The notes: generated from the sequence alone by a model not told the origin. Counted from the first letter of the stretch, positions 9,255-64,000 are shown. The stretch: 64,000 bases of DNA from a virus (IMGVR_UViG_3300032116_000102:1-64000); one strand, 5' to 3'. Translations and numbers: made by a program.

Positions 9255-10151
9255 TCAGCTAATAGAAATGTTTGGAGCACCAAGTGCAACCACGTAGGGA
9301 TTCGTGGCCAGAGCCTGACGCATTGTTGCACCACGCTCGCGTTGAGCGCCAAGAGCAAGATTGGCTTGTGCGCCAACCATCATCTGTTGGATATAAGCAT
9401 TGTTCTGAGTGTTAACCATTGCTTGTGCACGGGTTAACTGATCGTTTGCAAGTTTCGTGGTGATAGGAAGCATTGACTTTGCCATTGTCACCTCTTGCTC
9501 ATTCTGGAACTGCGTCAGGTCCTTCAGATTGGAGGTGGTCATGCCCATCATGGTGCCGTAATAATCAAGCTGACGCTTTTGATTACGGTTCGTGAAATCT
9601 TCTTGGGCTGCGGCATCATTAAGGTTGATGCGTCCCAGGGGGGTATCAATGAAACGAGGTGGTTGAGCAACTTCGGTCCCCGTCTTGCCGGTGGGTGGTT
9701 TACCGGTGTAAGCAGAGACTGCTGCTTCTGCTGCGCCACCACCCAGGATGCCACCAAGAGCAGAGCCAGCAAGGCCGCCAATCACAGTGCCAACACCTGG
9801 AAGAAGTGCGGTACCAAGAGCGGCTCCAGCTGCACCACCTGCGGCAGAACCTACAAGGCCACCAGCGGCTTCAGCAGGACGGCCTTCCATCAAGGAAGGG
9901 ATAGCCATCAAAGCACCGCCGGCTAAACCGCCACGCAGGCCAGCGCGCATCGGTTTGTTACGAATATATTCCCCAGCGCCTTTAGCTTTTTCTTGTACAG
10001 ACTCAATGGTCCCGCCAAGACCGGCTTGAAGACGTGCAGCTTGTTCGTTCAAGAACTGTTGTGCCTGTTCACGGCGACCAGAAGACTGGGCTGGAGCTGC
10101 CCCGCTTGCTACTGGAGTGACAATGGGCCTGCCGTATTGATCAACTAACAT
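9255..10151 (-). CDS. Glycine-zipper protein, putative ejection protein
   Basis: GGLVGSAAGGAAGAALGTALLPGVGTVIGGLAGSALGG glycine zipper plus Gln-rich tail. Confidence 0.6.
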   Translation of the reverse strand: MLVDQYGRPIVTPVASGAAPAQSSGRREQAQQFLNEQAARLQAGLGGTIESVQEKAKGAGEYIRNKPMRAGLRGGLAGGALMAIPSLMEGRPAEAAGGLVGSAAGGAAGAALGTALLPGVGTVIGGLAGSALGGILGGGAAEAAVSAYTGKPPTGKTGTEVAQPPRFIDTPLGRINLNDAAAQEDFTNRNQKRQLDYYGTMMGMTTSNLKDLTQFQNEQEVTMAKSMLPITTKLANDQLTRAQAMVNTQNNAYIQQMMVGAQANLALGAQRERGATMRQALATNPYVVALGAPNISIS

Positions 10152-11753: not shown

Positions 11754-12284
11754 TCAGATCGACAGAGAAGCCTGAGGATTCTCATTAATGAGCTCCGGGA
11801 ACTTAGGAATATCAGTATTGGTTCCTTCTGCCAGCATGGCGGAGAGGTAACCGTTTGGATCAATGTTGTCCTGACGTGGGAAAGGATTTTTAATCTTTTC
11901 GCCAGGGGGGATGACCGGGCTTAGTCCATAGGAATTATTCCACTCCGGATCAAAGTCAGGTTGCTGCTCTGGATAATTTGGAGTGGACGGACGACCGATG
12001 GTGAAGTCGTAATCCGTTTCCATGTTGAAACGTCCTCGCCCTGGAAACATTTCATAACCATCTTGAAGCTCACCTTCTGGAACGAAGTTAAGCTCGTTGA
12101 GATTTAACCGTCTGTTAGCAACACGTTTAGTTAGATCTTGCGGACCAAAACGCGACGTGATCCAAGGCGTTTCTTGTACTGCCGCCTTGAGATCGTACTG
12201 ATCTTTGAAGTTTAATTTTTTATCTTTATTGCCGCCAAACTTAATGTAATCACCCGGTGTAGTGCGCGGCCTTTCTATTTTCAT
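11754..12284 (-). CDS. Hypothetical protein
   Basis: ORF track; operon context. Confidence 0.6.
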   Translation of the reverse strand: MKIERPRTTPGDYIKFGGNKDKKLNFKDQYDLKAAVQETPWITSRFGPQDLTKRVANRRLNLNELNFVPEGELQDGYEMFPGRGRFNMETDYDFTIGRPSTPNYPEQQPDFDPEWNNSYGLSPVIPPGEKIKNPFPRQDNIDPNGYLSAMLAEGTNTDIPKFPELINENPQASLSI

Positions 12285-12499
12285 TTAGCTTTCTTTTTCT
12301 TGTGTAAGCCTACCAAGGTTTTACGTAAGTTTGCTTGCTTTACAGTTTTTTCGTCATACTTGTCTGGGCTAGACAGTACATTCTCCTGAAGCTGGGCTGC
12401 GCTGATGCCACGGGATTTGGCCTTGGCCGTAAAAGCGCCTTCCTTGATATCAGCACCCTGGATCCACTTTTTATCTTTTTTCTTTTCAGCCATGATCAA
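12281..12499 (-). CDS. Small basic protein
   Basis: KKWIQGADIKEGAFTAKAK...KQANLRKTL, typical of small basic phage proteins. Confidence 0.6.
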   Translation of the reverse strand: MIMAEKKKDKKWIQGADIKEGAFTAKAKSRGISAAQLQENVLSSPDKYDEKTVKQANLRKTLVGLHKKKKAK

Positions 12500-14481
12500 A
12501 TACCAATACCAAATTGTTTGAGAATTGATTGGGGATCGCGTCCTTCAATTGTAGCTCGACGCAATGCTTCACTTACTTCCAGGGACTTGCGTTTTTGTTC
12601 TGGAGTCGAGGTGATGGTTGTTTTAAATTCAGGGTAACTTCCCTGGCGCAATGTCAGCTTGGTCTCTTCACGTTGAAGAGCTGTGGGCCTTAACTCTGGA
12701 TCGGCAATGGGTTTGTCACGTGGTTCAATTCCATAAATCCCAATAGAACGTCCAGTTTGCGAACGATCTCCTTCAAAGATTTGGGGAAGACCGCCCGTTT
12801 CAATATCAAAGTCACGAACACGTGTTTTTTGTCCGCCTTGAAGAATTTCACGAACAGCTTCAGCGGTTGGATTACCACCACCAGCAACAAACTCAGCAAG
12901 ATTCCTGCCGCCACCACCTCTGGCTTTTGTTTCAATTGAAGGACGACCGCCACGAATCTCAAGAGTTTCAGGAATAATTTCACCAGTTGCTTCGTCCACC
13001 TCAAAGAAGGGGCGCACACCTTCCTCTCTCTTCAGCGGTTTGTATTGAGTGCCAAGGGATTCCAGGGATTCCATCCGCCCACGCACGTAGTCGCGTTCTG
13101 CGAGTGCGTCACCAAGATCGACATTGACAGAGTCTGGATTGAGAGACTGTTTCTCATTCATCATTTTGTTAAGAAGGCGGGTGTAATACCCACCCTGCCC
13201 TGGTTCATCTGCTGCGGCAAACCGGAACTGAGGCTCTAATTGATCGATTTCTTCCAGTCGATTAATAATTGCTTGTTTCTGCTCGCCAAGCTCAGAAATC
13301 CGGTTGGTTAAGTTAATATCTTTTTCAACAAGATTATCAATAAACTCCCCTTGGCCGGTCGGTTTATAAAACTTGCCGGTTGGGATGGTTTCTTCTAATA
13401 ACTCCGTTTGCACACGCGGTTGAATGGTCAAAGGAGAAGACGGTGTTTGTGACAGACGGGAAAGAACGGCTGGATCACCGGTTGAGGCGTAAAGCTCTAT
13501 AGCTTCTGCAATTGCAGGATCGGTACCCATTACACGTTCACGCCGATAACGTCCTGGGATAGTGGCACCTAATTCTTCAAACTTAGATTGAAGGAAAGAT
13601 TGTGCTTGCTCACGAGGACTGGCGGCAGCAGCAGGAAGGAGAGGAATGGTTTGCTGTTGGTTAACAGCGTCGGGAGGAATGGTTGCCTCGCCCCAGGGAT
13701 CAGCAATATTGACTTGTTTAACAATGCGGCCGGTTAGTTGATCTTCTCCGGATTCAACAGCGTTAATGAATTGATCCGCTGTGACAGGAGCTTGAATCTT
13801 TTGTAGGTCGGTTAGGGTTGCAGTATTTGTTTCAAGCCGAGCAGCTGCATTCAATAGATCTTGTTGTGCCGTGGCACGGCGGGCAGCTTGCAGTTCGGGA
13901 GACGGGGGATATTTCTTTTCAAAAGCGGCAAGTGCAGCCGAGCGGTAACCAGGTTCCGCTTGGCGCTCCCGATAACCAACACCATAGAAACGAGAGGTTG
14001 GAGCAGGGAAATTTAATTCTTCTGCCGTAGGTTCTGGCAGTTCAGATTCCAGTTGACGCCTGTATTGCGTAAAGGCCTCTTCCTCCGTAGGCATGACGCT
14101 ACGGCTTGCAATCTTTGATGGTGCTGGCACAGGGGTTGCAGGTGCAGGCTCTGCAGCAACACGACGAACAGCCTGCTCCATGTCCGCAAGATTAACTTGG
14201 CGTACACCAGCGGTTGCAGATTTGGCTGGACCCTTGGGAAGCTGTTGCCTGCGGCCCATCAAAGCCCTGGCACCAAACCCCACACCAGCCAATGCACCCA
14301 AGCCGAGAGCTGCAGTACCCAACGCGGCAAGTGGGTTGAACTCTTGTTGTGGTGCTTTGAGTTGATTACGGCGGAATTCAAGAACTTCTGGGGCCATCTG
14401 CGCCCTTTCCTGCTCATCTTCTGGAATTGGCGCTCCAGTGGCACGACTGTAGGCGTAAAAGTCAGCAGGGGAGATCGCCAT
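12496..14481 (-). CDS. Large putative internal virion protein
   Basis: 661 aa; one N-terminal hydrophobic Gly/Ala segment; first gene of the late cluster. Confidence 0.6.
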   Translation of the reverse strand: MAISPADFYAYSRATGAPIPEDEQERAQMAPEVLEFRRNQLKAPQQEFNPLAALGTAALGLGALAGVGFGARALMGRRQQLPKGPAKSATAGVRQVNLADMEQAVRRVAAEPAPATPVPAPSKIASRSVMPTEEEAFTQYRRQLESELPEPTAEELNFPAPTSRFYGVGYRERQAEPGYRSAALAAFEKKYPPSPELQAARRATAQQDLLNAAARLETNTATLTDLQKIQAPVTADQFINAVESGEDQLTGRIVKQVNIADPWGEATIPPDAVNQQQTIPLLPAAAASPREQAQSFLQSKFEELGATIPGRYRRERVMGTDPAIAEAIELYASTGDPAVLSRLSQTPSSPLTIQPRVQTELLEETIPTGKFYKPTGQGEFIDNLVEKDINLTNRISELGEQKQAIINRLEEIDQLEPQFRFAAADEPGQGGYYTRLLNKMMNEKQSLNPDSVNVDLGDALAERDYVRGRMESLESLGTQYKPLKREEGVRPFFEVDEATGEIIPETLEIRGGRPSIETKARGGGGRNLAEFVAGGGNPTAEAVREILQGGQKTRVRDFDIETGGLPQIFEGDRSQTGRSIGIYGIEPRDKPIADPELRPTALQREETKLTLRQGSYPEFKTTITSTPEQKRKSLEVSEALRRATIEGRDPQSILKQFGIGI

Positions 14482-22698: not shown

Positions 22699-22917
22699 AT
22701 GTCTGATTACACCGACGAACAACTCCTTGCCATGGCCATGGCAAACATTGGTGAGTACATCACAGATAACTCACCTCAATACATCCTGATCGAAGACGAT
22801 CCTCGTAATGAGGATGATTACGACACATGGAGTTACGGTACTGAACCGTTACCTCATGATCACACTTGGCACTCCACATCGATTGATGTAGAGGTAAGCC
22901 CAAGTCAGGCCGACTAG
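22699..22917 (+). CDS. Small acidic protein
   Basis: ORF track. Confidence 0.55.
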   Translation: MSDYTDEQLLAMAMANIGEYITDNSPQYILIEDDPRNEDDYDTWSYGTEPLPHDHTWHSTSIDVEVSPSQAD

Positions 22918-25978: not shown

Positions 25979-26380
25979 GGAAAGTATATGACCGTTGCTG
26001 TATATGATGTCGTTCACCACGTAACACAACCATGATTTCAATTTCTAAAACTTGCACAGAATTCCGTAAAGCCTTGGGCTTTAAGGGAAGACTCATGTTA
26101 TTTGTCCTTGGTTTTGTAGGTCTTCTCTTCCCTGGTTGGGTAGCCTATGTTGTCATCGCTGGTCTAGCCAAGTGCACCAAGGATCAAGACATGTTTAAGT
26201 TCTTAGTACAATTTGCTGATTGAACCATGACTGAAGAACAGCTTGATGCTTTACGTCATCTAATCCAACAAGAGATTAACTGTGCCCAAATTGATGGCAT
26301 GGAACATGGTGTCTGGGGCTGGGCAGAAAAACAACTAGATGAAGGATGGCAAGACTTGAAAGATAGTTTTAAATCCACCT

Positions 26381-26395
26381 AAGTTCTACACACTA
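26381..26395. repeat. Putative recombination core site AAGT-tctacac-ACTA
   Basis: Overlaps a TAA stop (26380-82); left border of the cassette block. Confidence 0.55.
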
Positions 26396-26407
26396 CGAGG
26401 TTCACCA

Positions 26408-26767
26408 ATGACTCAACGACACCCAATCACTCCGCCGCCTGAGCTTGTACAGCAGTGGCTTGGCACCTACTTCGGTGCCACCGTTACTGGTGAAGTAAGC
26501 GATGTTGAGCTTGCTCTTGCCACCCAATCCGCCCGCTGGGGCGCTGATCAGGAGCTGGAGGCGTGCTGTGAGTTGCTGAACTGTGAACTTGGCACTGGCT
26601 GGGGGCATGGAACCAAACTCCGCGCCGCCCGCCGCCCCAAGCCGCCGAGCTTGAAGGAGCAGGCGCTAGGTGCCCTCTATGCCATAGCCACAGGCGCTGA
26701 TGACACTAGAGAGTTTCACCAAGACCTTGAAACCATTAAGCAAGCTCTTGAATCCCTGCCCGATTAG
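26408..26767 (+). CDS. Hypothetical protein (cassette 1)
   Basis: HPITPPPELVQQW...WGADQELEACC...RPKPPSLKEQAL; GC-rich. Confidence 0.7.
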   Translation: MTQRHPITPPPELVQQWLGTYFGATVTGEVSDVELALATQSARWGADQELEACCELLNCELGTGWGHGTKLRAARRPKPPSLKEQALGALYAIATGADDTREFHQDLETIKQALESLPD

Positions 26768-26779
26768 TCAACATCACTA
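26765..26779. repeat. Putative recombination core site TAGT-caacatc-ACTA
   Basis: TAG is the stop of 26408-26767. Confidence 0.6.
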
Positions 26780-26791
26780 CAAGGTTCAACA

Positions 26792-27178
26792 ATGACTCAA
26801 AAACAATCACCTACACAGGCAGAGCCAACAGACAAAGAGCTGGCAGAGCTGTACCGCAAATCCTATTACGAATGCGAAGACAGACAAGGTGATGCGGCGC
26901 AAGTATTTGCGCTACGTGCTGTTCTCGCCCGCTGGGGCAACCATCCGGAATCTCCAGGTAGTTCAACGCCGCAGCCCATCCCAGTGAGTGAGCGCCTGCC
27001 AAGACCGGAGGATTGGGATGAAGAAGGGAGGTGTTGGGGTTTTCACCAGTACAACCCGGAAGACGACGACATTTGGGAATCTTGGTATTTAGTACCAACT
27101 CAACACCTGTTGCCTTCTGTCCAATGGCTGGGCTTTTCCCACTGGCTCCCCGCCAACGCTTTGCCCCAGCCCTCTTAG
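26792..27178 (+). CDS. Hypothetical protein (cassette 2), DUF551-like C-terminus
   Basis: PIPVSERLP...SHWLPANALP. Confidence 0.65.
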   Translation: MTQKQSPTQAEPTDKELAELYRKSYYECEDRQGDAAQVFALRAVLARWGNHPESPGSSTPQPIPVSERLPRPEDWDEEGRCWGFHQYNPEDDDIWESWYLVPTQHLLPSVQWLGFSHWLPANALPQPS

Positions 27179-27190
27179 TCCGATCAACTA
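27176..27190. repeat. Putative recombination core site TAGT-ccgatca-ACTA
   Basis: TAG is the stop; next ATG follows immediately at 27191. Confidence 0.6.
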
Positions 27191-27472
27191 ATGAAACTTG
27201 AAATCAAGCTCACCGATGAGCGCTACAAGCATACAAGCATTGATGAGCCCGCTGAAATGACCACCACTTGGGAAGCCGAGATGGATGACTGCTCAGTTCA
27301 CGCTTGGTTCAAAGTGTTTGAGAGCGTGCTCGGTGCTGCTGGCATGACCGAAAAGCTGATCATGCGCGGCGCTTGCCAGCTCGCCTTTAACGAGTGCCGC
27401 GACTTTGAGGAGATGAAGAAGCTGAGCAGCGACTACGACCTTGACTTCAGCGACAACGCTGCTCCCCAGTAG
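27191..27472 (+). CDS. Hypothetical protein (cassette 3)
   Basis: ORF track; GC-rich codons. Confidence 0.65.
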   Translation: MKLEIKLTDERYKHTSIDEPAEMTTTWEAEMDDCSVHAWFKVFESVLGAAGMTEKLIMRGACQLAFNECRDFEEMKKLSSDYDLDFSDNAAPQ

Positions 27473-27484
27473 TCAGACCCACTA
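27470..27484. repeat. Putative recombination core site TAGT-cagaccc-ACTA
   Basis: TAG is the stop; right border of the cassette block. Confidence 0.6.
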
Positions 27485-57562: not shown

Positions 57563-58225
57563 ATGGCAAACCTCCATCGGTCCGAACGGAAGCTGTTTGA
57601 ATCCGTTGCTTTCCGCTTCGTACCTGATATTGATAGTCTCAATGATGACGCACTTGAGACGCACGGGTACTACCGAGGTTTCGTGTGTCCTCACAACCAT
57701 GTGATCAGGGATATTGCTGAAAACTGGTGTTATCACTGCGTTCACAAGATCCAATCCAACATCTGTGGCTTTGATATCAACTACCTCCATGTTGAATACA
57801 AGGCCAAATATCAGAAATTGTGGCAAAAAATCACGGTTGGCGGTCCAGATGACTGCTGGCCTATCGATGCACCTGGCCCCTACACACCCAAGCGTGTATG
57901 CATGCCCTCCTATCGCTCTGCCTACAGTCACCAAAAGTCTGAAAACCTAAGCTTCCATAAGGCGATCTACAACTGTGCCTGGGGGGATGTGGGGGGAATG
58001 GTGGTGACACGTCTGTGTGGGAATCCAAGATGTGGCAATCCTCTCCACATGGTCTCCAGTTGGAATAAACTCTTCCCGCCATCGGTCGTCCATCCCTTTG
58101 AGCTTGAGTTTCAAGCAGAAAAACTCATGGCATACGGCCATAACAAAGAACAACCTTTAGTCTTTAACCAGTCCTTTCGTAACACCATTACTTTCCCAGA
58201 GGGTATAGAAATACCAGACGAGTAG
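57563..58225 (+). CDS. His-Me finger/Zn-binding protein
   Basis: DDCW...FHKAIY...VVTRLCGNPRCGNPLHM. Confidence 0.6.
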   Translation: MANLHRSERKLFESVAFRFVPDIDSLNDDALETHGYYRGFVCPHNHVIRDIAENWCYHCVHKIQSNICGFDINYLHVEYKAKYQKLWQKITVGGPDDCWPIDAPGPYTPKRVCMPSYRSAYSHQKSENLSFHKAIYNCAWGDVGGMVVTRLCGNPRCGNPLHMVSSWNKLFPPSVVHPFELEFQAEKLMAYGHNKEQPLVFNQSFRNTITFPEGIEIPDE

Positions 58226-58253
58226 AATACATACAAAGGTTTACAAAATATAA

Positions 58254-58994
58254 ATGGCACGTAATCAGGATGTTCAACGTCAAAGGACGCAGGACAATCC
58301 TTTAAGTATGGGTCAGTTCTCCCAACTTTCCCTGCGCAATTTAAAAGGAAGTCTTGGGCCTAAAAGCCAGGTTGTTGGTCGTAGGGATACAAACCAAAAT
58401 TCCAATGGTGGTTATGGTGGCGGTGCGTACAATCACTGGTTTAGCTTTACGATCACATCAAAGGCTTGGATTATTGTTGCCAAGGGTGGTCCAAGGCCTA
58501 AGTACATCAACACATCAGTGTACGACCTGAACCTAACACCCATTGAAGGCAGGGGAATTTTTCAGGACGATAGTATTACGGTCGATATTAACGGCGAGGT
58601 TTACAACCCGTATGTCGGCCATGTCATGAACGCTCAATCAGATCTGTACAACCTGTTCAATCCCAATCGTTTAGACAAGGGAGATGAACGGTACTATCCT
58701 TTGAACTCTGGGACGTATCTTTTGTGCGTCTCAACGACACGCAATGAACCACTTGATTATGAGGTGGGGGTTGTCATTGAGTTTCCATCCGGTGACTTTG
58801 AGTTGCTACTGGAGGATTTTGCTTATATTCTGCTTGAGAACAATGATTTTATTGAGAACGACCATACAGAATTCTACGAAGGCCAAGATGCCCACGACCA
58901 CTCCTTAAGTGAATGGGAAGAAGCATGGCAACGTGAGCACCAGGCCGATGATCGGTTTCCAGCGTTTCTTGTACCCCTTGCCACTGTACCGTGA
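58254..58994 (+). CDS. Hypothetical (possible virion) protein
   Basis: 246 aa; TAGAAT box upstream. Confidence 0.6.
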   Translation: MARNQDVQRQRTQDNPLSMGQFSQLSLRNLKGSLGPKSQVVGRRDTNQNSNGGYGGGAYNHWFSFTITSKAWIIVAKGGPRPKYINTSVYDLNLTPIEGRGIFQDDSITVDINGEVYNPYVGHVMNAQSDLYNLFNPNRLDKGDERYYPLNSGTYLLCVSTTRNEPLDYEVGVVIEFPSGDFELLLEDFAYILLENNDFIENDHTEFYEGQDAHDHSLSEWEEAWQREHQADDRFPAFLVPLATVP

Positions 58995-59128
58995 TCAAGT
59001 TCTACAACTGGTTTATCTGTAAGTTGTCCAGGCGTTTTCACCTTGGCACGCCAAGTCCAGCAAAAGCATTTGAGACATATTGCGATCGCAACCCTTGGGA
59101 ACGTGCCTGCCGCATTTATGAAGATTAA
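58991..59128 (+). CDS. Mini CP12-like protein (45 aa)
   Basis: ...AFETYCDRNPWERACRIYED*: the C-x8-C-R-x-Y-[DE] CP12 C-terminal motif; GTGA overlap. Confidence 0.65.
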   Translation: MIKFYNWFICKLSRRFHLGTPSPAKAFETYCDRNPWERACRIYED

Positions 59129-59180
59129 ATAAAATCTTTAGTACGCAGTCATAGAATATAAACAGATCCGGAGATCAACC

Positions 59181-59345
59181 ATGCATGATTTTAATCGTTA
59201 TCTAGAAGTAGCACTGGCTATTCATGCCGCATGTTCTGCTATTTGTGCTCTCACCCCAACCCCCAAAGATGATGCTGCAGTTCGTAAGCTGTATCGTCTC
59301 ATTGAAATCTGTGGCCTTGTGATTGGCCGCGCCAAGCAGCGTTAA
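59181..59345 (+). CDS. Small membrane protein, possible holin
   Basis: Hydrophobic helix plus LTPTPKDD motif; near the endolysin. Confidence 0.5.
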   Translation: MHDFNRYLEVALAIHAACSAICALTPTPKDDAAVRKLYRLIEICGLVIGRAKQR

Positions 59346-59503
59346 TCAGGTAACGCCTGAAACCAGAAACAAACACCATTGTTTCGTTCAACCCAATCCC
59401 TTGTTGCGTACGCTTGCTCTTTGGGCAGTGTTACGCATTTTTTTTCAGTGCCAACTTCATAACATACGTTGACGCGTATGTATGGCTCCTTGTATTTCTT
59501 CAT
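59342..59503 (-). CDS. Small hypothetical protein (53 aa)
   Basis: MKKYKEPYIRVNVCYEVG...; abuts the endolysin stop. Confidence 0.5.
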   Translation of the reverse strand: MKKYKEPYIRVNVCYEVGTEKKCVTLPKEQAYATRDWVERNNGVCFWFQALPD

Positions 59504-60526
59504 TTAATAATCCCATCTGACTCGAGGCTTTCCTTCTCTCATTCCCAAATGCAAGAACCCCTTTGGAGCGCCGTATCCAACTGAGTACGGCCAATTTTTA
59601 TCGCACCAGGCTTGCACCTTATAGATATCGACTCCCTCAATGTAAAAATCTATCGCTCCTTTGGAGGGCGCATTGTAAGTGTGCTCGCTATTTTTTGCTC
59701 CTCCAACTTGTGTATTGATGGGTTCTGGACGTGATGCACTTGTAATGATTAACGGTTTATTTCCAAATGCAGTTCTAACTTTCTCAAGAAATCGACAAAG
59801 CTCCAAGGCTGTATCGCATTGATACTGTTTACTGAAACGACGCGCCTCCTGGTTGAGTGTTAATTCTCCGTAAGTAATGTGAGGGGTGATCTTATATGTA
59901 AAAGGGCTCCAAGGATTAAACTTTGGTTTCTCAACTGGTTTAGGTGCTGGTTCAGCTGGTTTGTTTCCGGCAGTACCAAGCTGCCGATCCATGATCTGAA
60001 TTAATTTTGTGCTGTATTCAGGATCGGTGGCGTATTTTTCCTTTACTAAAAACTGCGCACACTCATTCCTTGTCTTTGCTCTATTAACACCTTGATATGT
60101 ACTGAAGTCTTTATACCAACGATCTACAAGGTAGTAAATGCAGGTCTTGAGATCAGGAAAGTCAATGAACCCAGCTTTGATTGTGACCCATTGACCGTTA
60201 AGGAATTCCTGCGTATTGACGCTTGTGCCAGATCCTTTTAAACCAAATGCGTTCCAGGTACCTGAGAAATGCTGACCCCAGCCTGATTCAAGTGCCCATT
60301 GTGCTGCAACAACTTCAGGGAATTTGGCTCCTGCTTCTTTTGCTGCTGCTTGAACACCGGCCCAATTATTTTCAATTTTAGGTTGCGGTTTAAGAGAAGC
60401 TCGGTATTTAGTAGCAAAAGACTCCAAAACCTCAGAAGAAATCTGAGACTGGAGCCAGTTCCAAGCATCAATCTGATGGTTTTCTTTTTTAAAAAATTCA
60501 GCAGCGTCTGTTAGTTTAATTGACAT
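59504..60526 (-). CDS. Endolysin: glucosaminidase (GH73-like) plus peptidase M15A
   Basis: AAQWALESGWG, NAFGLKG, YATDPEY; ITSASR...N..VGGAKNSEH...AIDF...FLHLG. Confidence 0.88.
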   Translation of the reverse strand: MSIKLTDAAEFFKKENHQIDAWNWLQSQISSEVLESFATKYRASLKPQPKIENNWAGVQAAAKEAGAKFPEVVAAQWALESGWGQHFSGTWNAFGLKGSGTSVNTQEFLNGQWVTIKAGFIDFPDLKTCIYYLVDRWYKDFSTYQGVNRAKTRNECAQFLVKEKYATDPEYSTKLIQIMDRQLGTAGNKPAEPAPKPVEKPKFNPWSPFTYKITPHITYGELTLNQEARRFSKQYQCDTALELCRFLEKVRTAFGNKPLIITSASRPEPINTQVGGAKNSEHTYNAPSKGAIDFYIEGVDIYKVQAWCDKNWPYSVGYGAPKGFLHLGMREGKPRVRWDY

Positions 60527-60569
60527 ATCGCCCCAGGGTCTTTTATTGACTCTAGGTCAACTTAATAGA

Positions 60570-60764
60570 TTAAACAGAGGCACTACCTGCGTCTTCTTCT
60601 TGTGCTTGTTTCACTTCTGGGGGCTCTTCTGGATCAAACTCAAGTGTTTCAATAAGCTGACCAATAAGATTGCCAGAAAAAACAATTAAATTTCGATCAC
60701 TAGTAGAAGAAGCGGCACCAAAAGAATTGATGGCGCTAATCAACTCAGACTTTTTGCAAGCCAT
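60570..60764 (-). CDS. Small hypothetical protein
   Basis: MACKKSELISAINSFG... Confidence 0.55.
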   Translation of the reverse strand: MACKKSELISAINSFGAASSTSDRNLIVFSGNLIGQLIETLEFDPEEPPEVKQAQEEDAGSASV

Positions 60765-60798
60765 AGGGAACAAATAACTTCAAAAAGTATAACAAAAA

Positions 60799-61122
60799 TT
60801 ACCAAGGTACGCCAGCTTCGGAAGTAGGGTTGATTTTTTGTTGGATCTGTTGGTACAAAGATTCCTGAATAGAAGTCACTTGATCAACACCTAAAACTTC
60901 AAATACCCAATTCAGTACCTCTTCTTTGGTCAGTTCACTAAAAGGGACAAATGTTGACGGATCAGGATCACCAAATCCCACGGAGCCATAAGCACTAGCA
61001 GACTCACCATCTTCTTCCAAAGATACGGTCCAATGTGCAGTATAGACAGCACCATCGGGACAGGTGTCACCATCGGGAAGATGGCGCTCAAGTTGAGCAA
61101 TATCCCAAGTTGCGTTAGCCAT
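60799..61122 (-). CDS. Tail-fibre-associated small protein
   Basis: W.IAQLER...VYTAHW...FVPFSELTKEEVLNWV...GVPW. Confidence 0.6.
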   Translation of the reverse strand: MANATWDIAQLERHLPDGDTCPDGAVYTAHWTVSLEEDGESASAYGSVGFGDPDPSTFVPFSELTKEEVLNWVFEVLGVDQVTSIQESLYQQIQQKINPTSEAGVPW

Positions 61123-61149
61123 AACAAATGTTTTTTCTTATTCTAACAA

Positions 61150-62004
61150 TCAAAGCTCAGGTATTTCATATTCTTTTGTGCTGTTGCAATAGTGTTTGAA
61201 AATAATTTCACTTGTGTTTCCGGCCCAAGATGCTACCTGAGGCACGGGAATACCAGCCTCAATCCAGCGGCTAATTGCAGTGTGTCGACAGTCATAAGGA
61301 CGATATAAATGCGTAATCAGTTCAGCTTGATAAAAAGGTTGCAACTTTTTGCGAAAGTAACTTTGAAAAGCAAGCCTATCCCATGGAAAAACAAAACGAT
61401 CACTCTGTGGTAATTGCTTTAAAATTTCTTGGCATTTACCGTTTAATGGAACCCAGCGACGTTTGTTGGTTTTGGTGCTGTCTTTTAAACCATGTGTCAA
61501 GGTGTAGTTTTGATGCACCAGGATTTTATTGTCTTTAATGTCGTCCCAGAGTAATGCGCGTACTTCTCCGGTACGCATTGCAGTTTGAAGCATAAACTCT
61601 GTGTACCAAGCCCAGTTAACATTCTTGTAAGTTAATTTTGCTTCCAAAGCTGCAAGTACTAAACCTACTTCGTTGCGTGGAATAACCACGACTTCCTCAT
61701 CCCGTTGAGGAGCTTTTGGCATTTTAAAACTTGCCAAAGGATTTCTGTTGATGTAAGCGACATCTTCTTGTGCTGCCCATTTGTACATTGTTTTTGTGTA
61801 CATGGCAACGCGCCTAGAAGTAAGCACGGGTTTTTCTCCCAAAATCCAAATCATGATTTTGCGTGCCTCTTCAAAATCTTGTATGGGGCAGCGTCCCAGC
61901 CATTTGGTTACCTGTCTGTAATCTGACGTAAGGCTGGTCGGGCACAAAGAAATTGAACGCTCTTCGACGAAGGCGTTCCAAAGTTCAGAGAGCGTGGTTG
62001 GCAT
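61150..62004 (-). CDS. Tyrosine recombinase lacking an N-terminal arm-binding domain
   Basis: AMRTGE (R), TKT (K), PYDCRHT, WAGN, KHY (Tyr); 284 aa from ATG 62004. Confidence 0.92.
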   Translation of the reverse strand: MPTTLSELWNAFVEERSISLCPTSLTSDYRQVTKWLGRCPIQDFEEARKIMIWILGEKPVLTSRRVAMYTKTMYKWAAQEDVAYINRNPLASFKMPKAPQRDEEVVVIPRNEVGLVLAALEAKLTYKNVNWAWYTEFMLQTAMRTGEVRALLWDDIKDNKILVHQNYTLTHGLKDSTKTNKRRWVPLNGKCQEILKQLPQSDRFVFPWDRLAFQSYFRKKLQPFYQAELITHLYRPYDCRHTAISRWIEAGIPVPQVASWAGNTSEIIFKHYCNSTKEYEIPEL

Positions 62005-62017
62005 GATATGAGTTGAG

Positions 62018-62055
62018 AAGAGCGATACACTAAGACACCACTCTCCTTTTGTCAA
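62018..62055 (-). promoter_or_regulatory. Recombinase promoter TTGACA-N17-TAGTGT overlapped by the core-like site TAGT-gtatcgc-TCTT
   Basis: -35 at 62050-62055, -10 at 62027-62032, site at 62018-62032. Confidence 0.6.
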
Positions 62056-62193
62056 CCACGCACACTGGGGTCAAAGGTCGCTAGCTTTCAACAAATTATA
62101 GATGTCCGCAAGTTGATTAGCGACAACTGATGCCCATAGTAGAAAGCAAACAAACCACCAGTGGATAAGGCTGATTTTGTTCATGGTAAAACT

Positions 62194-62358
62194 TTAAGTG
62201 TCAGCAAGACGTTTCATGCCTTCGTCATTATCAACGTAAAGACGATAGAGTGCGGCCAGGGCGTCAGTCTCTTTAGTATCTTTCTTAATTGTTTTCGTCT
62301 CATGCCGCACCTTTTCAATGCAATAATCAAACGGTTCTAACCAGGTGTCGTCATTCAT
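62194..62358 (-). CDS. Small hypothetical protein (54 aa)
   Basis: MNDDTWLEPFDYCIEKVRHE...; starts 2 nt after a core-like site. Confidence 0.5.
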   Translation of the reverse strand: MNDDTWLEPFDYCIEKVRHETKTIKKDTKETDALAALYRLYVDNDEGMKRLADT

Positions 62359-62360
62359 AG

Positions 62361-62375
62361 AAGTGCAAGTGTCTA
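62361..62375. repeat. Putative recombination core site TAGA-cacttgc-ACTT (minus strand)
   Basis: TAG is the stop of 62373-62690. Confidence 0.55.
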
Positions 62376-62690
62376 GGAGTTTTGTTCGACCTTCATCTGG
62401 CCCAGCACTTCCTTCAACAAACGATGCACTTCGCCAGCGTCGTCGATGAACTCGCCTTTGTAGTAGAAACCTTCTTCGGTGAAGCGGGCAATTTCCTTAA
62501 GGGGTTCGCCGATGCTGAAGGCGATGGTAGAGGGATCCGTGTTTTCACCAACCCCAAGACCTTTGCTGGGCGCAACTACAAGCTTGTTTGAGGGGGTCAC
62601 GGATTTCCACGGTCCATTCCCGTCAACACGGGCGTACTCCTCACCGCTTGAACGGAAGACGAGATCGTTGTCGTAATCTTGTTGGGTCAT
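62373..62690 (-). CDS. Small protein made of tail-fibre-like repeats
   Basis: LVFRSSGEEYARVD and IAFSIG...EIARFTEEG. Confidence 0.6.
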   Translation of the reverse strand: MTQQDYDNDLVFRSSGEEYARVDGNGPWKSVTPSNKLVVAPSKGLGVGENTDPSTIAFSIGEPLKEIARFTEEGFYYKGEFIDDAGEVHRLLKEVLGQMKVEQNS

Positions 62691-62783
62691 GGTTTCTAGG
62701 GAATCGTGGCCAGGGGCAGGAGGTGAGAACTCGCTGCCCCACAACTATATGCGAGCTAGGGCCAGAGGAGAAGGGGACTACTC

Positions 62784-62817
62784 ACCGAGCAAGTTACCGA
62801 GCAAGTACCGAGCAAGT
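62784..62817. repeat. Tandem repeat 3x ACCGAGCAAGT
   Basis: accgagcaagt-t-accgagcaagt-accgagcaagt. Confidence 0.85.
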
Positions 62818-62831
62818 AGTGAGTAGGTCTA
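62817..62831. repeat. Putative recombination core site TAGA-cctactc-ACTA (minus strand)
   Basis: TAG is the tail fibre stop. Confidence 0.55.
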
Positions 62832-64000
62832 GGCGGCCTCAAGGGCTGCAACACGAGCGCGAAGCTGCTGAATCTCAGCGATCAGAAGAGGCACCAACAC
62901 CTGATGGTCCATTTGCTGGTAGATCGGATTGCCGTCATCATCAACGGCATCTTTTTCGCCCGTGACACAATAAGGCGCAACCTCCTGCGCCTCGTGTGCA
63001 ATCAGCATTGGGCGCTCAACGGTCGCGCCATTCATGACGCCTCTGTAAACTTTGAAGGCATCAATAGTGGCTCCGGCGTTCTCTAAATCGCCCAAGATGG
63101 TCTTAGAGCGATAATCCGAAGTAGTGTTGTATGCAACAACGCCGCCCCCACGGTTGTAAGTAATGCTGCCTCGTGGGGCATTTAAGTCTGTGGCAAACCT
63201 AGAAAAGATCTGATCCCCAGAGGTTTCGTTGCCCCAGATATTGAGAATAGCCGCTGATGTCGAAGCGTCTGACCTGAGCGCACACGTATTTACGCCTGTC
63301 TGGGAAAGCACAGAAAAGGTTGCACTAAGGACGGGGTCAGTAGAGTTAATAACCGTTTTGCCTGAACTCGTAATTCGCGCCCGCTCAGTCGGGCTGCTCG
63401 CTCCGTCGGCGGTAGTGGAGAACACTAATCTCGATCTATGGTTAGATCCAGAAGTCCAGCTACCGTCTGCGATGCCTTCAATAGATGCGCCAAGATTAGA
63501 TGAGTTGTCTGTAAAGTAAATTGCGCCAATTCCTGAAGTGCTCGCACTCGGCAAACTGTCTCGTGAAAGCTGGATGGTGCCATCAACACCGGAAGCAGCG
63601 GGGTTTCCTCTAATCACCACCCTTGCATTACTGAGAGTGTTACTAGACGTGCCAACTAACAACCTGCCGGAGCTGTCGATGCGGGCGCGTTCTGTTCCTT
63701 GTATTCCAAATAGAAGTGGAAATGCCCCACGAGTTTCTAATGTCCCCGTGCCTGCGTCTGAACGAAGCTCTACGCCCTGCGTATTGCTACTGACACGGAT
63801 AGTAGAAACACCGGAACGAGCTACCTCTAAGCCATCACCAACACCAAACGCAGGACTAGTAGTGCCAATCCCTACACGGCCTCCCGTTGTGATGTTTAGA
63901 ACTTCAGTGTTAGATACTCCTTCATAAAGGCGAAGATTACTAGAACCTGTTCCTCCGTTCGTGGGAATTAAGCGCCACTGGTTTCCGCCATCTGCCCTGC
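62829..64000 (-). CDS. Tail fibre with C-terminal intramolecular chaperone (peptidase S74); 5' end outside window
   Basis: Repeats VGIGTTSP, ERARIDSSGRLLVGTSS, RLVFSTT...ERARITSSG; YNTTSDYRSK...LIAHE...LIAEIQQL; frame open to the right edge. Confidence 0.9.
   Translation of the reverse strand, partial: RADGGNQWRLIPTNGGTGSSNLRLYEGVSNTEVLNITTGGRVGIGTTSPAFGVGDGLEVARSGVSTIRVSSNTQGVELRSDAGTGTLETRGAFPLLFGIQGTERARIDSSGRLLVGTSSNTLSNARVVIRGNPAASGVDGTIQLSRDSLPSASTSGIGAIYFTDNSSNLGASIEGIADGSWTSGSNHRSRLVFSTTADGASSPTERARITSSGKTVINSTDPVLSATFSVLSQTGVNTCALRSDASTSAAILNIWGNETSGDQIFSRFATDLNAPRGSITYNRGGGVVAYNTTSDYRSKTILGDLENAGATIDAFKVYRGVMNGATVERPMLIAHEAQEVAPYCVTGEKDAVDDDGNPIYQQMDHQVLVPLLIAEIQQLRARVAALEAA
63413..63427. 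repeat. Putative recombination core site TAGT-ggagaac-ACTA inside the tail fibre gene
   Basis: Perfect arms; encodes LVFSTT. Confidence 0.55.
63644..63658. repeat. Putative recombination core site TAGA-cgtgcca-ACTA inside the tail fibre gene
   Basis: Encodes LVGTSS; same codon phase as 63413. Confidence 0.55.
63860..63874. repeat. Putative recombination core site TAGT-gccaatc-CCTA inside the tail fibre gene
   Basis: Encodes VGIGTT; same codon phase; one arm mismatch. Confidence 0.45.

Follow-up and report, generated by a model that had tools for sequence, protein, structure and literature searches.

The closest described system to the elements analyzed here is that of the promoter-early stem-loops (PeSLs) of T4-type phages, conserved regulatory motifs of hyperplastic regions which have been proposed to serve as exchange points by homologous, possibly site-specific, recombination (PMC2839356, PMC4122927). 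In the same type of phages, adhesin segments of the tail fibre are reportedly exchanged as modules at conserved motifs (Trojet et al. 2011, PMC3157838). Lysogeny has been proposed for the freshwater cyanophage S-LBS1, but its authors found neither integration nor induction (Zhong et al. 2018, PMC6157547), and for T7-like marine cyanophages integration without lysogeny is reported (Shitrit et al. 2021, PMC8776855). The present analysis concerns the stretch IMGVR_UViG_3300032116_000102:1-64000, hereafter the window, which corresponds to the first 64 kb of an 85,559-bp IMG/VR virus record rated 100% complete by CheckV. The virus is a cyanophage whose genes match those of Synechococcus phages. On the minus strand of the window, a tyrosine recombinase (integrase) gene lies downstream of a tail fibre gene, and the two are separated by small accessory genes and by copies of a short junction element built on a TAG stop codon, which is the subject of this study.

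A first-pass annotation had described ten sites of the form (T/A)AG(T/A)-N7-(A/T)CT(A/T), i.e. a 4-7-4 inverted repeat on which an arm-less recombinase would act to exchange gene cassettes and tail-fibre modules. The explanation that we consider best, and to which we lend slightly more belief than doubt, is that a family of linkers marks seams exchanged by general recombination, the integrase being a passenger rather than the mover of the cassettes. The sites would belong to a family of short junction elements (~11-20 nt), oriented by strand and poor in G, each of which would begin at or just after the stop codon of a small accessory gene (TAG, then TC), continue as a pyrimidine-rich run, usually with a CACT(T/A) box, and end at a start codon, a promoter or the next module. 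They would mark the seams of a hyperplastic accessory-gene region which, in this group of freshwater picocyanophages, extends from the tail fibre gene to the fibre-associated DUF7936 gene, in which the integrase would be one passenger, and those of a second such region of this genome at 26.4-27.5 kb. There, general homologous recombination, of phage or host, may use them as micro-homology to add, remove and re-sort genes, since no other sequence is common to otherwise unrelated cassettes; they probably also act as a non-Shine-Dalgarno leader coupling the translation of successive small genes.

The format of the element was established from the window and from a set of relatives, namely 80 IMG/VR loci with close integrase homologues (62-95% amino acid identity) and 10 kb on either side. 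A TAG stop codon is followed by TC (or AC), by a pyrimidine-rich, G-poor run and by a CACT(T/A) box, often with the next ATG directly behind. Read in gene direction, the junctions of this genome are TAAGTTCTACACACTAC, TAGTCAACATCACTAC, TAGTCCGATCAACTA-ATG and TAGTCAGACCCACTAC-tt-ATG, which together with three GC-richer small genes form the plus-strand array at 26379..27484, as well as TAGACACTTGCACTTCT-ATG and TAGACCTACTCACTAC, the latter being built on the fibre stop codon (62816..62831, minus strand, read from the sequence). The 11-mer TAGTCCCCTTC at 62780-62770 (minus strand), which recurs in relatives, is a seventh copy, and three copies lie between the fibre stop codon and the integrase. 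The junction element TAGACACTTGCACTTCTATG (62356..62375, minus strand) comprises the stop codon of the upstream open reading frame (ORF), a G-poor leader and the start codon of the next ORF, a format which matches TAGTCATTCCCACTTCTATG and TAGTCGCTTCCACTTCTATG of relatives. A degenerate copy, TAGCGACCTTTGAC, is found in the sequence upstream of the integrase promoter (62070..62083, minus strand), and two relatives (L007 and L023) have TAGTCTTTGAC at the equivalent position.

Among the relatives, 126 distinct TAGTC contexts group into a few sub-families, which include TAGTCACCTTC, TAGTCCTACTC(A/T/G)C, TAGTCATTCCCACTTCT-ATG, TAGTCGCTTCCACT..ATG, TAGTCAACGCCCCTAACGGG-TTGACA and TAGTCTTTGAC. TAGTCCTACTC(A/T/G)C follows the fibre gene in >20 distinct relatives, and TAGTCCCCTTC does so in S-LBS1 and in four other loci (L007, L008, L067, L078); in genome G003, the same 11-mer lies 465 nt ahead of the integrase. 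The commonest form is fixed in the 11-mer TAGTCACCTTC alone, the sequence downstream of it being free. The elements are located on the sense strand throughout, all of them in direct orientation. Copies behind the fibre gene lead into a promoter or into ~80-120 nt of non-coding DNA, not into a start codon, and in one relative (L037) a tRNA-Arg gene lies between copies of TAGTCCTACTC and TAGTCACCTTC. Being G-poor, unstructured and 11-20 nt long, the elements coincide with no promoter-like or terminator-like site, neither a -35/-10 pair nor a stem-loop being found at them.

Their enrichment near the integrase is pronounced. Over the 500 nt that precede the integrase, the TAGTC pentamer reaches 2.72 per kb, vs ~0.4 per kb elsewhere, the antisense strand being flat. 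Of the 146 genes on the strand of the integrase which end <1.5 kb ahead of it, 75 end in TAG and 44 in TAG+TC, the latter ending being used by 0.6-3.7% of genes elsewhere in the same loci.

Homology between related phages ends at these junctions. One locus is 96% identical to the window across 26223-26778 and unrelated past that (L091), the homology of another spans exactly 26379-26778, i.e. from one element to the end of the next (L092), and in two others it stops at 26778 (L096) and at 27194 (L105). The island at 26744-26780, made up of the last 21 nt of a gene and of the element, is 92-100% identical in four loci (97-100% in three), the gene bodies of these same four loci being just 70-74% identical. 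Across 52 non-redundant loci, 32 of 236 homology breakpoints fall between -5 and +25 nt from a TAGTC, vs 8.8 expected, which amounts to 0.27 breakpoints per element and 0.10 per other ORF stop. They are found on either side of the element, with no single crossover point.

The small genes at 26.4-27.5 kb have a GC content of 52-59%, vs 41-47% in both flanks, a contrast which suggests that these cassettes may be of foreign origin. The array of 26379..27484 is also present in G003, at 12064-13047. Small-gene families also change their place: that of 26408 (MTQ.HPITPP...LE.LPD*), for example, which is located at 26 kb here, adjoins the integrase in three relatives (L019, L021, L057). A tandem duplication relating the 26408 and 26792 genes was considered and rejected (BLASTP E = 0.22).

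Population variants of the locus were obtained from assembled contigs of public freshwater metagenomes. In contigs from two different studies (X13, depth 17.8; X3, depth 3.8), position 61134 is joined to 62820 with 27 other letters in between. This joint (L002 3134-4820) defines a near-identical phage devoid of the integrase and of two small ORFs, in which DUF7936 follows directly behind the fibre gene; its right edge (62820) lies inside the element TAGACCTACTCA. In a run from a third study (X18), 62058-62198 is swapped for 29 nt carrying TAGTAGTCTTTGAC. Among the loci L007-L088, contig ends fall 0-250 nt upstream of the integrase far more often than at any other place, in 12/58 cases (~1.5 expected), and within 250 nt downstream in 0/45, and two contigs (L008 and L053) start exactly at TAGTC; such a pile-up is what a conserved gene abutting a hypervariable stretch would produce.

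Seen from these junctions, the palindromic 4-7-4 motif is a partial view of a real, asymmetric and oriented element. All the sites listed by the first-pass annotation carry the sequences given for them, including the single mismatch at 63860 in the fibre gene (TAGT-N7-CCTA); 62361 and 62817 overlap the stop codons of a small ORF and of the fibre gene, respectively, and 26381, 26765, 27176 and 27470 are four gene junctions in succession. These six are the junction sites proper, and the pooled list of ten is a mixture of at least three unrelated things. The motif WAGW-N7-WCTW has 23 matches in the window vs 14.5 +/- 3.6 in shuffled sequences, one of 100 shuffles reaching 23; one match absent from the earlier list, at 22902, lies at a putative tRNA-like fragment. 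The 7-bp spacing is not special, since spacers of N0-N15 give 12-41 matches over the whole 85.6-kb genome and N7 gives 28. The perfect TAGT-N7-ACTA occurs four times in the window vs 0.53 expected, three of the four forming a single local run of junctions. A stop codon is touched by 8/28 N7 sites, compared with 0-2 for most other spacings (N10 = 6), and the signal at gene ends is therefore real. The inverted-repeat architecture itself does not generalize, because relatives keep the left part only (TAGTC and the pyrimidine-rich run, often with CACT), the right side of TAGTCACCTTC being free. Spacers acting as addresses between core sites find no support.

The remaining listed sites have other explanations. 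The 62018 site overlaps the -10 hexamer TAGTGT of the integrase promoter TTGACA-17-TAGTGT. Within the fibre gene, the two exact sites (63413-63427 and 63644-63658) lie at codon offset 1 of TTA-GTG-TTC-TCC-ACT-ACC and TTA-GTT-GGC-ACG-TCT-AGT and encode LVFSTT and LVGTSS, i.e. the repeated fibre peptide L-V-x-S/T-S/T-S/T. With two sites observed vs 0.48 expected under codon-order or synonymous shuffles (P ~0.08), coding of this peptide accounts for what had been read as fibre-internal recombination sites. A joint of 63427 to 63644, found in three runs and skipping 216 nt (72 codons), was considered as a site-specific deletion and rejected, both sites being kept; its edges are exactly the outer edges of the two fibre sites, with a short side of only 18-22 nt. 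This and other joints in the fibre gene, obtained with likeness set at 90%, are most likely alignments of divergent mosaic fibres and were not used as evidence. The island 63358-63434 is 86-89% identical in 7 loci and 77-78% identical over a longer stretch in 2 more; it is conserved because it encodes the conserved peptide VFSTTADGASSPTER, and exchange may occur at this island, to judge from the homology edges.

The link between the elements and the integrase was then considered from the side of the elements. In a cassette-anchored set of 80 loci with a homologue of the 26408 gene, TAG+TC is the ending of 20 copies and at least 14 carry the leader TAGTCATTACCACTAATCACCC-ATG, the integrase family being found within 4 kb in one locus only. 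The exact 16-mer CCCAGTAGTCACCTTC has >120 matches; among the 63 loci which extend downstream for 2.5 kb or more, four have this integrase within 2.5 kb downstream. Most copies of this 16-mer form the 3' end of an abundant small-gene family ending in ...ELEAQ*. The integrase family is absent from the whole records G001 (97% complete), G006 (100%), G007 (94%), G009, G016 (100%), G027 (100%) and others, and elements are present in four of these integrase-free genomes (G001, G007, G016, G027); a PF00589 search gave no match anywhere in G001, G007 and G027. The fourth, G016 (the record of L099, 6229-6726), is a complete 48.7-kb phage in which a cassette between TAGTCATTACCACTAATCACCC and TAGTCACCTTCACTT is followed, ~4 kb downstream, by an unrelated tyrosine recombinase (376-aa frame). 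Moreover, the integrase block is itself an insertion/deletion among near-identical phages, where it splits an apparent fibre-DUF7936 pair. Because elements occur in near-complete genomes without PF00589, with 4/63 proximity and scattered breakpoints, and because the integrase block is an indel, the integrase is probably not responsible for cassette movement. The earlier proposal that the sites delimit cassettes is retained in part: stop-codon sites do bound small accessory genes, and the homology of relatives ends there, whereas the recombinase as driver is not supported.

The integrase looks like an active enzyme. Its product matches PF00589 over residues 132-294 (47.7 bits vs a 27.1 cut-off), and the same profile also finds the gene in the genome search. 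The 301-amino acid (aa) ORF starting from TTG is an over-extension, the recombinase having 284 aa from the ATG at 62004 (61150..62004, minus strand; supported by Pfam, homologues and AlphaFold/Foldseek). Homologues number >1340, the best 120 being 83-93% identical and nearly all 284 aa long; the closest named relative is the integrase of the freshwater siphovirus S-LBS1 (77% identity). In 11 sequences, down to 62% identity, R144, R240, W260 and Y272 are invariant, as are K174 and K178 of the beta-hairpin, and an invariant Tyr (Y237) takes the place of the first His; these catalytic roles were assigned by pattern, not by structure superposition. An AlphaFold model (predicted local distance difference test, pLDDT, 76.7) predicts four N-terminal helices forming a core-binding domain, followed by the catalytic fold. 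A lambda-type arm-binding domain comprises ~60-80 aa ahead of the core-binding domain; in the model, the chain begins directly with the core-binding helices, and such an arm-type DNA-binding domain thus appears to be absent. The best Foldseek matches are Tn1549 Int (82-397) and lambda Int (75-356), as constructs without arm domain, with XerA/XerH, Cre and IntI also found (E values 1e-8 to 3e-4; IntI, 2a3v, at rank 37). NCBIfam gave no integron-integrase model, only weak XerD/XerC matches (E 1e-4 to 1e-3), and a PDB sequence search with the integrase gave no match. Collectively, length, predicted fold and Foldseek matches uphold the description of the enzyme as arm-less. It is an active-looking, two-domain tyrosine recombinase with its own sigma-70-type promoter.

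This promoter-like site, TTGACA-17 nt-TAGTGT, was read from the sequence at 62027..62055 (minus strand). About 30 distinct relatives have a perfect TTGACA, then TAnnnT 17 nt on, at the same place, with varying -10 sequence; the site follows a functional pattern, because TTGACA and its 17-nt spacing are conserved and TAnnnT varies. A simple consensus promoter scan missed it, TAGTGT fitting 3/6 -10 positions. In five relatives (L008, L018, L062, L072, L074), lineage-specific inverted repeats bracket the -10 box (window 62020-62050), e.g. GGAGGCA-12 nt-TGCCTCC and GCGGCA-8 nt-TGCCGC, in differing registers; they may be operators co-varying with a repressor. A covarying hairpin around the -10 box was rejected, RNAalifold giving no consensus pair.

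Regarding the function of the integrase, it is most likely devoted to host integration, like other cyanophage integrases, a view that follows from family membership. No tRNA-like match, as a candidate attP, was found in 58000-64000. Among one genome per species of 185,579 species, exact peptide words revealed no integrated copy, a search which misses weak relatives; three close matches were obtained, all on 2.5-20 kb contigs of non-cyanobacterial metagenome-assembled genomes, and these are probably mis-binned phage contigs. Picocyanobacterial lysogens are generally rare. A tRNA gene near the integrase was found in one of 60 related loci (L037), between the fibre gene and the integrase: tRNA-Arg(ACG) lies at 9867-9992, between the fibre stop (TAGTCCTACTC...) and the TAGTCACCTTCACAAATG that precedes the integrase, and could be a cassette or an attP carrying a tRNA.

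Among the other explanations, that of expression signals without any role in recombination, either a termination/re-initiation leader of genes lacking Shine-Dalgarno sequences or a docking site for a phage RNA-binding regulator or RNase, appears rather unlikely to us. Breakpoints would then coincide with elements only through their position at gene ends. Such signals would fit the strict sense-strand orientation and the typical format of a stop codon, 8-20 G-poor nt and an ATG, as well as the leaders of the 15-43 kb block, where Shine-Dalgarno-like motifs precede 5/49 genes, G amounts to 17% vs 22% and CACT is twice as frequent as in coding sequence. The element is, however, not merely a ribosome-loading leader, because promoters, non-coding DNA or a tRNA gene adjoin some copies: many have no start codon next (after the fibre gene, before promoters, before structured non-coding sequence), and one comes after a tRNA gene. 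In addition, islands of 92-100% identity on an element next to 70-74% for the gene point to recent exchange or conversion, and breakpoints per element are 2.6x those per other ORF stop. It is even less likely that there is no element, and that chance matches combine with the shared descent of homologous junctions with homologous genes. Such an account can draw on the degenerate motif not being enriched over other spacings, on the P value of the fibre matches (0.08), on related loci not being independent samples and on CCCAGTAGTCACCTTC being largely the 3' end of one gene family, but it has to contend with the same 11-mer joining many unrelated upstream and downstream sequences, with a ~6-fold local enrichment on one strand only, with TAG+TC at 30% of upstream genes vs <=3.7% elsewhere and with the excess of perfect TAGT-N7-ACTA in the window.

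An integron- or shufflon-like system, in which the arm-less integrase would take up and exchange cassettes by site-specific recombination at TAGTC elements, the one beside the integrase corresponding to attI and distant copies or those of integrase-free phages being relics or served in trans during co-infection, is in our judgment very improbable. That the integrase is the engine which inserts small genes, a tRNA gene among them, at a site of the TAGTC type immediately ahead of its own gene and behind the tail fibre is likewise very doubtful, and that elements elsewhere are footprints of its activity has no better than a slim chance of being correct. The crowding of elements into the 1 kb ahead of the integrase, across dozens of different contexts, would be expected of such a platform, and so would the tRNA gene placed as a cassette between two elements in L037, the arrays of the integrase-bearing genomes G000 and G003, the unrelated recombinase near the elements of G016 and a very abundant integrase for which neither prophage nor attP was found; the sub-family structure of the variable middle part would also fit 'address' spacers. 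Against this stand the absence of an inverted-repeat core, with one side conserved and the right arm free in TAGTCACCTTC, breakpoints flanking the element on both sides with no fixed crossover, three near-complete genomes with elements and no PF00589 match, and the few element-anchored loci with an integrase nearby. The enzyme is not IntI and has only weak XerC/D matches, its gene runs in the same direction as the array from a promoter of its own, the block that holds it behaves as an indel, and the 63427-63644 joint keeps both sites, unlike a site-specific deletion.

General recombination at linker-like seams, the explanation that we favor, also meets several difficulties. The positional association of elements with the integrase is strong in relatives, and general recombination alone leaves this favored spot unexplained. 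Most breakpoints (86%) lie away from elements, and some coincidence is expected, as selection tolerates breakpoints at gene ends only. The enrichment of CACT in leaders is modest (10/49 vs 11% of body 30-mers). Among complete genomes, arrays of at least three elements were seen only in the integrase-bearing G000 and G003, the two integrase-free genomes examined having single copies, numbers far too small to be conclusive. Finally, with neither attP nor prophage found, an ordinary lysogeny integrase is not established either.

Two candidate signals were rejected. The sequence TAGTCCTACTCACTAC resembles the T7 class III promoter, and the 875-aa ORF encodes a primase-helicase rather than an RNA polymerase. 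A PF00940 search of the genome gave no match, its control being silent too, and no sigma-70 region 2 gene was found. A mimic of the anti-Shine-Dalgarno sequence, or pairing with helix 45 of the 16S rRNA, was considered and dropped, since that stretch of the 16S would already be paired.

On the minus strand, the 829-aa tail fibre gene (65318-62829), of which the window holds the C-terminal part (62829..64000, continuing to 65318 in the genome), is followed by an 84-nt spacer. Two junction elements enclose three tandem 11-bp repeats (plus-strand ACCGAGCAAGT, 62784..62818, not assigned to a strand; 3.1 copies with a 95% match in Tandem Repeats Finder), which are also found in L029. An ORF of ~105 aa comes next (62690-62373, i.e. 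62373..62690, ATG at 62690, MTQQDYDNDL..., from the ORF list), preceded by a conserved leader (62691-62745, minus strand) which also precedes its homologues in L120, L140 and L168; at least 15 related loci, otherwise unrelated in their flanks, share 62673-62745 at 81-89% identity. Ahead of the ATG, this leader (62673-62769, minus strand) contains a -10-like TATAGT and a GGGGCAG/CTGCCCC hairpin, and relatives keep the layout with differing sequences (TGGTATAAGAT...GGTAG..CTACC). The following 54-aa ORF (62358-62194, i.e. 62194..62358, MNDDTWLEP...KRLADT, from the ORF list) gave no match in Pfam or NCBIfam, and has homologues (MSEHNWLEP...KRLADS) upstream of the integrase in L057 and L062. It is followed by 138 nt of non-coding sequence, which contains the promoter-like site, and by the recombinase gene (62004-61150). 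The C-terminal half of the fibre gene and the 105-aa ORF (62.4-64.4 kb) have a GC content of 51-55%, vs 42-45% for the integrase.

Directly 3' of the integrase, the DUF7936 gene (61122-60799, i.e. 60799..61122, minus strand; Pfam PF25590, 97 bits) is followed further on by a bifunctional lysin. DUF7936 comes directly after the integrase in 70/78 relatives, and in L068 the order is fibre, DUF7936, integrase. It is more probably a fibre partner, because it adjoins the fibre gene in L068 and in the integrase-less form, and may serve the fibre as an accessory protein instead of being paired with the integrase.

Two further sequences were noticed around the elements of related phages. Just after TAGTCACCTTC(ACTA), a structured sequence recurs in L191, L195, L196, L205, L213, L230 and others, beginning ~12 nt past the TAG stop; it shows apparently compensatory changes (GCAGCC...GGCTGC vs GCAACC...GGTTGC) and also AAGGGT...ACCCTT, which may form a pseudoknot. 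Rfam gave no match to it in eight loci, nor any in 58-64 kb of the genome. The second is a near-perfect palindrome, GAACTATCYGGAA-T-TTCCRGATAGTTC, with a stem of often ~17 bp, present in 29/307 fetched loci (e.g. L070 855-879, L196 2587-2611), between the fibre gene and the integrase and elsewhere, and as a degenerate copy in the window at 26939-26963. Its possible roles are those of terminator, operator or recombination site.

If correct, exchange at linker-like seams would mean that freshwater and estuarine picocyanophages shuffle accessory genes, including those directly behind the host-range-determining tail fibre gene, at a portable stop-and-join linker which requires neither a promoter nor a dedicated enzyme. 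It would carry the PeSL idea, in simplified form, from T4-type myoviruses over to siphovirus-like cyanophages, and would account for the breaks that metagenomic assemblies of these abundant phages show just ahead of the integrase. The analysis also characterizes a very abundant and strongly conserved integrase family, the role of integrases in picocyanobacterial phages being a long-standing question.

Compared with integrons, the locus shares an arm-less tyrosine recombinase beside small, mostly promoterless genes, each of which ends in a recurring site overlapping its stop codon. It differs by the lack of an IntI signature and of attC-like imperfect palindromes of 57-141 bp (R''-L''/L'-R' boxes), by an integrase located downstream of the array and co-oriented with it, not divergent from attI, and by elements which occur without any recombinase. 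Unlike shufflons, it has no inverted-repeat sites bracketing fibre segments: no inverted repeat of note was found in 58-78 kb, including around and within the fibre genes, and the junction elements are all direct.

Among cyanophages, S-LBS1 has an integrase 77% identical to this one and the same order of tail fibre, TAGTCCCCTTC, integrase and DUF7936. It differs as a 34.6-kb phage of 60% GC whose proposed att motif lies elsewhere in its genome. A ~110-bp direct duplication of the DUF7936 3' end and following sequence is also noted in this phage (L001, MG271909, 5140-5370). The T7-like marine cyanophages likewise have a phage tyrosine integrase in a group in which no lysogens were found, with a different integrase clade and phage type. 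Their attP reportedly matches a host tRNA gene, and no tRNA-matching attP was found here. A 15-nt stop-codon linker of a marine cyanophage, ACTAAGTAACACTCA, has a similar look (TAAGT...CACTCA) and a different sequence, and is a lead, not a test. With the modular fibres of T4-type phages, the fibre gene shares a conserved peptide island, VFSTTADGASSPTER at 63358-63434, which links fibres that are otherwise unrelated.

The likeness to PeSLs is the most extensive: in both cases short conserved elements recur where small variable ORFs of hyperplastic regions meet, the element delimits the indels and replacements that distinguish close relatives, and a role as exchange point between otherwise unrelated sequences has been proposed. 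The difference lies in their composition, PeSLs being composites of a sigma-70 promoter and a stem-loop, whereas the present elements have neither and are built on a stop codon, within 11-20 nt, in siphovirus-like freshwater cyanophages.

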